DNA of 64,000 nt from Dictyostelium discoideum (lineage: Eukaryota): NCBI GenBank assembly GCA_000004695.1, contig CM000150.2, positions 864,001 to 928,000 on the forward strand, written 5' to 3'. The notes beneath the pieces were generated by a model. That model was not told the DNA's origin. It did not search any database and worked only from the letters and a program-made list of their open reading frames with translations. The position numbers and the translations under genes are program-made. Of this stretch, positions 39,471-41,468 are shown in pieces (within the stretch, counting starts at the first letter, position 1; every line of letters starts with the position of its first letter).

Positions 39471-40590
39471 ATGAACAACTTAAATGATAGTAATAATCAT
39501 TTACTAAAAAGTGGGGGTACTTCTATACAAGTAACAGAAATTAAAGATATACCCCCAGATTCACCTTTTTCGTCTGAAGACGATATAGAATTTCTTGAAG
39601 TTAATTCTTTGGAGAGTAAGTCAAAGAAAAGAAAACTTAAAGATTTGGCACCCCCCTCAAATAATGATAAAAATGAAGATAATAATAATAATAATAATAT
39701 ATTTGTAAACAATCCAATAATACCATCACCATTATCATCATCGTCACCATCATTAAAAGTTGGAACTACTACAACAACAACAACAACCACCACCACCACC
39801 ACTTCAGCAGCAGAAGAAGCAGAAGAAGCAGAAGCAACAACTGTAAATAGAATAATCTCTTCATCATCATCATTACCTACATTTTCAAAAGATAAAGAAA
39901 TAAAAGAAGTAGATAAAGAAAGTTATTCTATACATTACTCACCACCCATACCATCATCATTGTCACCATCTTTGTCAAACCTATCATCATTACCAACAGA
40001 TCCAATTGAATTAGTAGTTTATCTTAAAGATAATTTACCATTGAAAGAGATTTCCAAAAAGATGAATATCGGTAGTATGGGTGATATATTGGCTGAGGAA
40101 TTTTCAAGATATCTTACAATACTCATAAAATCTGATGATAGAAATTGTAATCAATTTCAACCATCACCTTTAGTACAATTGTTTTGGAATTTTGGTTTAA
40201 ATGATTATTATTCTAGTCAAATAATTAAATCTTTTTTTTTTATTCATGGTCTTTCATTCAATACTCCAAGAATGTTTGATTCTATTGCATTACAAAGAAT
40301 TCGTTATGAAAATACAATGAAAAATCATAAAGAATACTTTTTAACCGATTTAAATACAATTAATGCTTTAAATGTTCCAATTTGGCCATCAGATTATTTA
40401 CTTATTGATACAAATAATAATAATAATAATAATAATAATAGTAATAAAAAAAGACAACAAAAACAAGAAAATAAAAAAGATAAAGAAATTATATTACATA
40501 TACAAGAAAATTATATAACAAAAAGAGAAGAACAAGAGGAAATTATTAACCATAAAAATGAAATTAAACAACAAGAACAACAACAACAAG

Positions 40591-40635
<45 letters not shown>

Positions 40636-41468
40636 CACAACAAGAACAACAACAGCAACAACAAGAACAACAACAAAAAAAACAACAAGGACAACAAATA
40701 ATAGAAGATATAATTAAATTAGATGATTTAAATAATGATGAAGAAATGAAATTTAATGCACCAAAAAAACATAATCGTCGTCAAGAAAAAGAAAAAGAAA
40801 AAGAAAAAGAAAAAGAAAAAGAAAAACAAAAAGAAAAAGATAAAGATAAAGATAAAGATCAAGATCAAGATGAAGACCAAGAAGAATATATAGAATATTT
40901 ACATCAAGATCAAAATCAAGATCAAGATAAAGATAAAGATAAAGATAAAGACCAAGTAGAATATCAAGAATATGTACACCAAAATCAAGATCAAGAAGAG
41001 AAAGAAGTACAGATTAAAACTAAAAGAGATAAATTTAAAATTACTAAACCTCCAGTTAAATCATCAACCAAAAGAAAAACTATTGCTCGAGCTCCACCTC
41101 CTTTATACCCTGTTGGCTCTTTGGTTGAAGCTAAATGTTATGCATTTGGTGAAAGTCATGACCAATCATTCTTTGAAGCAGAAATAAAGTCCTATGATGA
41201 TATTAATGGAAAGTATTTGGTTGAATTTGAATGTGATCGTACTCAACAAATTTTGGAAGAATGGGATATTAAGAATCAATCCATTGAGGAAGTAACAAAA
41301 AACAATTTGGAGTTTGGAAGAAAAGTTTTATTTAAAAAAGATAATTCATTTTGGTATGGACCAGCTATCATCGTTGCAAAAGGAAAAAAGAAGTTTACTG
41401 TAACTTTTTTAAAAAAAAATTATGATCTAAAATTTGATTTTCATACTCCAATTTGTTATTATTTTTAA
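39471..41468 (+). CDS. Family-related protein F (665 aa): contains only the C-terminal family module, located mid-protein, followed by QE/KE/KD repeats and two tandem Tudor/Agenet-like barrels at the C-terminus
   Basis: Family block: KEISKKMNIGSMGDILAEEFSRYLTILIKSDD...LVQLFWNFGLNDYYSSQIIKSFFFIHGL...RIRYENTMKNHKEYF. C-terminal blocks: YPVGSLVEAKCYAFGESHDQSFFEAEIKSY..NGKYLVEFECDRTQQILEEWDI and VLFKKDNSFWYGPAIIVAKGKKKFTVTFLKKNYDLKFDF. Confidence 0.65.

Follow-up and report, generated by a model that had tools for sequence, protein, structure and literature searches.

A Dictyostelium cluster gene that joins an orphan-family block to a probable divergent tandem Tudor-like tail

Gene F and its family block

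The DNA analysed here, hereafter the window, is a 64,000-nucleotide stretch of chromosome 1 of Dictyostelium discoideum AX4 (contig CM000150.2, positions 864,001 to 928,000), which has about 20% GC, is rich in poly-N, poly-Q and poly-T tracts, and carries 10 paralogues of one orphan family clustered in tandem within 54 kb (window 10144-63999). The subject of this text is one of these paralogues, gene F, which lies between genes E and G within the cluster and combines the C-terminal module of the family with a tail that is probably a divergent tandem Tudor-like domain. The features of gene F, in window coordinates, are the following.

39471..41468, plus strand: gene F, an intact single open reading frame (ORF) of 665 codons plus TAA
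39618..39641, plus strand: basic patch KSKKRKLK, residues 50-57, resembling a nuclear localisation signal (NLS) and lying in an acidic, S/T-rich N-terminal region; found by motif scan
39996..40403, plus strand: family C-terminal module, residues 176-311, TDPIEL...EEFSRYLTILIKSDD...PSPLVQLFWNFGL...RIRYENTMKNHKEYF...IWPSDYLL; from the family hidden Markov model (HMM), collinear alignment and the ratio of nonsynonymous to synonymous substitution (dN/dS)
40404..41084, plus strand: low-complexity linker of poly-N, poly-Q and KE/KD/DQ repeats, unalignable with the orthologue
41106..41273, plus strand: barrel 1, residues 546-601, acidic (isoelectric point, pI, 4.3), Tudor/Agenet-like by sequence; from PDB sequence matches, hhalign and the Agenet match of the orthologue
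41313..41441, plus strand: barrel 2, residues 615-657, basic (pI 9.9), with the SH3-like barrel signature GRKVLFKK..FWYGPAIIV..FTVTF; within the DUF4537 match and with PsaE matches in the PDB

Since 2 kb remain open in DNA of about 21% GC, the reading frame of gene F is not a chance event. Downstream of the TAA codon lie poly-T and AT-rich intergenic sequence in which no plausible splice donor is seen, and a 3' intron extending the gene was rejected for this reason. The KSKKRKLK patch would be compatible with nuclear targeting of the protein.

Five modules can be recognised in the family by their signatures: IRIY...W for module 1, CxCxLC for module 2, YVHT...FKSGK...GYW.L.D..DPW for module 3, CGA..G..C..C..H for module 4, and DPIEL...EY.RF.ILK...PSPL(I/V).(L/F)FW...RYE.TL.LY.KYF...IW for the C-terminal module. 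HMMs for module 1, for modules 2 and 3 together (CxCxLC to GYW.L.D..DPW) and for module 4 were built from the paralogues and searched against all stop-to-stop segments in six frames of the whole window. These N-terminal models match A, B, C (twice), D, E, G, H, I and the tenth copy at 62737 on the plus strand, with E-values from 1e-9 to 1e-79; none of the three matches F or the 1.2 kb preceding it (38230-39470), in agreement with an earlier note on this DNA that described F as lacking modules 1-4.

The same note, whose quoted peptide strings are all present in gene F, had proposed that F keeps the C-terminal module, and this is borne out by an HMM trained on A, C, D, E and G with F left out, which matches F with E = 8.5e-8 and 29.2 bits over HMM positions 17-135 of 136 (F residues about 192-308). 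Among 1,620 six-frame segments of the window, F gives the only significant match to this model outside the training genes. Pairwise identity to the C-terminal modules of the paralogues is only about 24%, and the alignment is collinear, running from DPIEL through EEFSRYLTILIK, PSPLVQLFW and RIRYENTMKNHKEYF to IWPSDYLL. By these alignments F is a partial member of the window paralogue family, a dictyostelid orphan family.

Sequence affinities of the C-terminal tail

Two segments of about 60 residues at the end of F had been described in the earlier note as Tudor-like. Both are present, each is predicted to be beta-rich with three strands, and the tail gives Tudor-type Pfam matches that are statistically significant and below the curated thresholds, while the barrel fold itself is putative, the structural models being of low confidence. 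The best match of the isolated 127-residue tail is to DUF4537 (PF15057), with 26.5 bits and E = 7.1e-6, and it aligns residues 24-110 of the query with positions 9-94 of the 120-position profile, collinearly across both proposed barrels. The corresponding tail of the orthologue from a sister species, described below, matches Agenet with 23.1 bits and E = 1e-4, and DUF4537 with E = 2e-4. The curated cut-off is 27 bits for both families; the tail of F falls 0.5 bits short of it on the two-barrel DUF4537 profile, and being under both thresholds it is not to be filed as a member of either family.

The meaning of the DUF4537 score was examined with controls. The tandem Tudor region of 53BP1, its sequence verified by a score of 259 bits on its own family, also matches DUF4537 (23.3 bits), Tudor_2, Tudor_3 and Tudor_5, and this cross-match of a genuine tandem Tudor identifies DUF4537 as a Tudor-type model, one that fits the tail of F better than it fits 53BP1 (26.5 against 23.3 bits). 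Two reversed and eight shuffled versions of the tails gave no Tudor-type match, their best score being 13.9 bits with unrelated families, so that the DUF4537 score depends on the order of the sequence.

Searches against 177,635 distinct PDB sequences were made with each barrel alone. For barrel 1, Tudor domains make up three of the five top matches, namely chicken LBR (E = 0.035), 7de9 and human LBR, the aligned segment of 7de9 being that of a plant Tudor histone reader; in hhalign, barrel 1 and LBR share 37% identity over 38 columns from beta2 to beta4. Barrel 2 matches PsaE only, an SH3-like barrel, with E of about 0.8. None of the PDB matches is individually significant, and all of them point to the same kind of domain. 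Together these comparisons support the view that, among Pfam and PDB sequences, the tail of F is closest to Tudor/Agenet-type domains, and it is probably a divergent tandem Tudor-like domain.

Several results weigh against this assignment. No match of the tail reaches a Pfam curated threshold, neither barrel 1 alone nor barrel 2 alone matches any Pfam family, and full-length F has no match in Pfam, Tudor-type or other, likely on account of its heavy low-complexity content. BLASTP finds no detectable similarity between barrel 1 and barrel 2, and an internal duplication therefore cannot be shown. AlphaFold2 models of the tail are unreliable: the single-sequence model (mean predicted local distance difference test, pLDDT, 52.7) has two strand triplets separated by short helices, and the model made with the orthologue is lower still (pLDDT 35.3). 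The structural neighbours of the better model are generic barrels of the PilZ and split-barrel kinds, not Tudor domains. At such confidence the two models neither support nor refute a Tudor fold.

An unlikely alternative is that the last 120 residues of F form some other beta-rich domain, either a single six-stranded barrel of PilZ or split-barrel type or a generic SH3-like pair with no reader function, in which case the Tudor matches would reflect the strand pattern shared by small barrels. The sub-threshold Pfam scores, the restriction of the PDB matches of barrel 2 to PsaE, and an aromatic cage that looks incomplete in a hand alignment all fit such a domain. However, the PilZ-like topology comes from a model that cannot be trusted at pLDDT 53, and no PilZ or split-barrel family appeared in any sequence search. 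An E-value of 7e-6 against all of Pfam is also significant and, by the controls, bound to sequence order, the alignment follows a two-barrel Tudor-type profile collinearly, and Tudor domains account for most of the top PDB matches of barrel 1.

The cage itself was examined by hand alignment to SMN and LBR at four positions, the end of beta1, beta2, beta3 and the beta3-beta4 loop, which in SMN are W102, Y109, Y127 and Y130. Two of the four positions are aromatic in each barrel of F by this hand alignment (C556/F568/F586/D589 in barrel 1 and K623/Y629/F646/K649 in barrel 2). The position at the end of beta1 (C556, K623) and the one in the beta3-beta4 loop (D589, K649) are non-aromatic, which is a further point against the Tudor-like assignment, and the nearby aromatic residues Y557, F559, W628 and Y651 might serve as stand-ins. 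A methyl-lysine or methyl-arginine cage in the barrels of F is thus possible from the residues present, and the reading of methyl marks by F is conjecture.

A tail that is Tudor-like could also act on the ribonucleoprotein (RNP) side, binding methyl-arginine proteins or RNA in the manner of SMN, TDRD3 and the FMRP Agenet domains. Agenet/Tudor domains of FMRP, SMN and TDRD3 are reported to bind RNA or methyl-arginine proteins (PMC5430443, PMC3351191, PMC3281842), and the Agenet match of the orthologue and the very basic barrel 2 (pI 9.9) would suit such a setting. Against it stand the NLS-like motif, the lack of any RNA-binding domain elsewhere in F in the full-length Pfam search, and the best solved-sequence matches, LBR and the plant histone reader 7de9, whose Tudor domains belong to the nuclear envelope or to chromatin; we regard an RNP setting as very improbable.

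The copy in a sister species and the neighbouring genes

When the tail of F was searched exhaustively with HMMER against 1.84 billion representative proteins, a single true homologue (P0001) emerged; the remaining two matches are repeat-protein noise. Word-seeded searches came back empty whether the query was the tail itself, a profile of two tail sequences or a profile of seven family-module sequences, and a search of the literature on DUF4537, C11orf16 and Dictyostelium Tudor/Agenet proteins found nothing on gene F or its family. As far as these searches reach, the family of F is known from D. discoideum and one very close relative only.

The homologue maps to positions 10001-11475 of one locus (L001) on a 4.2-Mb contig of assembly GCA_054859325.1, from a sister Dictyostelium, and a DNA identity of 74-81% marks its host as a close relative. 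The locus is fully syntenic: E, G and H have orthologues there, as do three unrelated genes between G and H, all in the same order, and the copy of F keeps the order of its blocks. At least four changes break the frame in the sister copy and set its stretches apart by frame, namely the N-terminus, the first two-thirds and the last third of the family block, the linker, and the barrels. Single-nucleotide deletions outside homopolymers account for two or more of these shifts, and a deletion has removed the N-terminal segment that bears the NLS-like patch. In the P0001 gene model, the three 'introns' are coding-like (22-32% GC), contain sequence homologous to the coding sequence of F, and in one case carry a GC donor. 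An assembly error was considered as the source of the frame breaks and rejected, since the indels lie outside homopolymers and each of the six neighbouring orthologues is read in one frame throughout, over 0.6-3 kb, which indicates that the assembly is sound. The disrupted copy in the sister species is most likely a pseudogene of recent origin.

The last third of the family block in the sister species (IQRIRYENAMEYHKRYFSTDLNTIAILNIPIWPNYLL) ends at a stop exactly where the proteins of the paralogues end, after IWPNYLL. This stop lies inside a 12-nucleotide segment (TAAAAATCTATT; about 10716-10727 of the sister locus, corresponding to about 40392-40403 of the window) that is absent from F of D. 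discoideum. If the stop is the older state, its loss may have given rise to the single ORF of D. discoideum.

Selection was estimated by the Nei-Gojobori method between D. discoideum and the sister species, with dS about 0.5, and two exons of the intact gene G served as controls.

Both F barrels: dN/dS 0.18
F barrel 1: dN/dS 0.26
F barrel 2: dN/dS 0.10
F family block, residues 177-272: dN/dS 0.23
F family block, last third (40 codons): dN/dS 0.67
Gene G exon 3, control: dN/dS 0.115
Gene G exon 1, control: dN/dS 0.31

The low ratios imply that both domains of F were under purifying selection over most of the divergence of the two species and that the inactivation in the sister is recent. These observations bear on another explanation, namely that F is a young chimeric gene thrown up by churning of the cluster and has hardly any specific function, if it has one; D. 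discoideum would tolerate it, and in the sister it would already be decaying. Several observations fit such a gene: there is one homologue only in the whole protein search; the sister copy has its frame changes, its stop and its N-terminal deletion next to six neighbours that keep their frames; the 'introns' of its gene model are coding-like, with a GC donor in one; and the last third of the family block shows a dN/dS of 0.67. That value, however, comes from 40 codons only, while ratios of 0.10-0.26 for the barrels and the main family block are like those of intact gene G and speak for purifying selection over most of the divergence, and the ORF of D. discoideum is intact across 2 kb of AT-rich DNA. 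A functionless chimera is improbable on this balance. The state of its sole known homologue does tell against a functional F in one respect, since a broken frame there makes the gene dispensable in the sister species.

The members of the cluster are arranged as follows.

10144-12348, plus strand: gene A, with an intron
13257, plus strand: gene B
17664-20690, plus strand: gene C
25573, plus strand: gene D
35153, plus strand: gene E, with a second exon near 38024-38227
39471, plus strand: gene F, between E and G
44316-41813, minus strand: gene G, with three exons
54553, minus strand: gene H
61787, minus strand: gene I
62737, plus strand: gene J, the tenth copy, continuing beyond the end of the window

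The proposal of the earlier note that the modules shuffle independently holds in part. In its favour are the architecture of F, the absence of the C-terminal module from the called ORFs of B, H and I, and the internal duplication of modules 2-4 in gene C, where the CxCxLC/winged-helix-like block occurs at residues about 44-222 and 342-460 and the CGA..C..C..H motif at about 235-259 and 477-501. Gene A gives the proposal no support: its upstream exon (10144-10533, plus strand) encodes module 1 (IKILNVIDIDGRATELFWVNGQLIEN) and module 2 (CQCDLCLNELP), so that the gene is full-length and not truncated as its main ORF suggests.

The Cys/His motif of module 4, CGA(I/V)...G..C......C..H, resembles a zinc knuckle and is found in B, C (twice), D, E, I and J (for example at 26815-26890 in gene D). 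Searches of Pfam and of PDB sequences with the five modules of the family returned no relatives for any of them. A likeness of module 4 to the zinc motifs of INO80D/KANSL2 and one of paralogue module 3 to forkhead/H1-like winged helices, both considered, were unsupported in Pfam or PDB profile searches. A likeness of the family C-terminal module to GRDP/DUF1399, through a P..D..WH.H.L....Y..C motif, was also set aside, as none of seven isolated modules gave a Pfam match to it at E up to 10; the His residues of that motif are unconserved within the family alignment.

Other features of the window are recorded here in their own right. Gene G exon 1 (42334-44316, minus strand) contains a tract of (E-K/E-R) dipeptide repeats some 190 residues long and a poly-N stretch of about 60 residues. 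Long spurious ORFs result from these tracts in other frames and opposite to the gene, among them 42812-43402 on the plus strand and 42492-42848 on the minus strand. A 108-amino-acid ORF between E and F (38494-38820, plus strand) has a hydrophobic, F-rich middle and matches no family module. Of F and eight other ORFs that were looked up by exact sequence, only the one at 2636-3904 had an identical counterpart, the patatin family protein XP_647314.1/Q55G69 of D. discoideum AX4.

Proposed role and comparison with known systems

The explanation favoured here is that F is an intact, lineage-restricted chimeric member of the family with a probable Tudor-like tail and a likely role as a nuclear adaptor, and we put its chances, taken as a whole, at about even. 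It would have originated from a partial copy of a family gene that retained only the C-terminal module, which is predicted to be helical. The protein would then read through the point where those of the paralogues stop, just after IW..DYLL, into the low-complexity linker, and end in divergent tandem SH3-like barrels of the Tudor/Agenet 'royal family' type, with DUF4537 as the nearest Pfam family. As a nuclear adaptor, or competitor, F could contact through the family module a partner common to the whole family, possibly the paralogues themselves, while the pair of acidic and basic barrels would bind a second ligand, either a modified histone or protein tail or a nucleic acid through basic barrel 2. 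Without the four N-terminal modules, such a protein could either add a new binding surface to complexes of the family or compete with its full-length members.

The earlier note took the fusion to suggest that the family module works on chromatin or in an RNP, and this has no independent support: its only ground was the fusion in F, neither the C-terminal nor the N-terminal modules match anything in Pfam or among solved structures, and nothing independent links the family module to chromatin, which also counts against the explanation favoured for F. A chromatin role for the module is conjecture. A bolder version, in which the cluster encodes Dictyostelium-specific nuclear regulators with a new C-terminal interaction domain and F became a reader-adaptor or competitor, linking that domain to a histone or protein modification through its divergent tandem Tudor after a recent loss of the stop, strikes us as improbable; if it were true, the birth of a chromatin reader, and its death in a sister species, could be dated.

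What is new is the architecture, together with a divergent version of a domain whose kind is known, a modest result that would not surprise a specialist, and the fusion in gene F, a gene of a fully sequenced model genome, has no bearing on a long-standing open question. Nevertheless, F offers a compact case of domain recombination in a tandem cluster, with a sister copy apparently inactivated recently after a period of constraint. If the tail were a working Tudor-type reader, it would give a practical entry to an opaque Dictyostelium-specific family, and the ligands of the tail and of the shared C-terminal block would hint at where the whole family acts.

Compared with the paralogues of the window (A-E and G-J), F has the C-terminal module in common and lies inside the same tandem cluster, adjoining E and G, whereas it lacks modules 1-4 and reads beyond their usual stop into the linker and barrels; its FW-x-H-like motif is degenerate (FWNFGL).

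Among known domains the best Pfam match of the tail is DUF4537, an uncharacterised eukaryotic two-barrel family of Tudor type, with human C11orf16 as its archetype. The match is collinear over both barrels, while either end of the profile is left unmatched and an insertion of 9 residues separates beta1 from beta2 in barrel 1 of F. As DUF4537 is itself without known function, the match points to a class of fold rather than to an activity. A fragment of TDRD1 is labelled DUF4537 in the domain table of one paper (PMC11855755).

Of the solved sequences, the Tudor domain of LBR (PDB 2l8d and 2dig; Pfam LBR_tudor) matches barrel 1 best, with an E-value of only 0.035, and the likeness can be followed through FFEAEIKSYDD..YLVEF..TQQILEEWDIK in F and YYEVEILSHDS..YTVKY..TELELKENDIK in LBR. 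In contrast to the two barrels of F, carried on a soluble protein rich in low-complexity sequence, LBR has a single Tudor domain on a sterol-reductase membrane protein.

Tandem Tudor/Agenet readers such as 53BP1, SGF29 and FMRP are the remaining point of reference, and Sgf29 is a Tudor reader of H3K4me3 known in Dictyostelium itself (PMC8053100). The tail of F gave no alignment with the 53BP1 tandem Tudor in hhalign, and by hand alignment its cage positions are only half aromatic, which sets it apart from these readers. It shares with them an arrangement of two consecutive beta-barrel units of about 55 residues joined by a short linker, the barrels of F being predicted.

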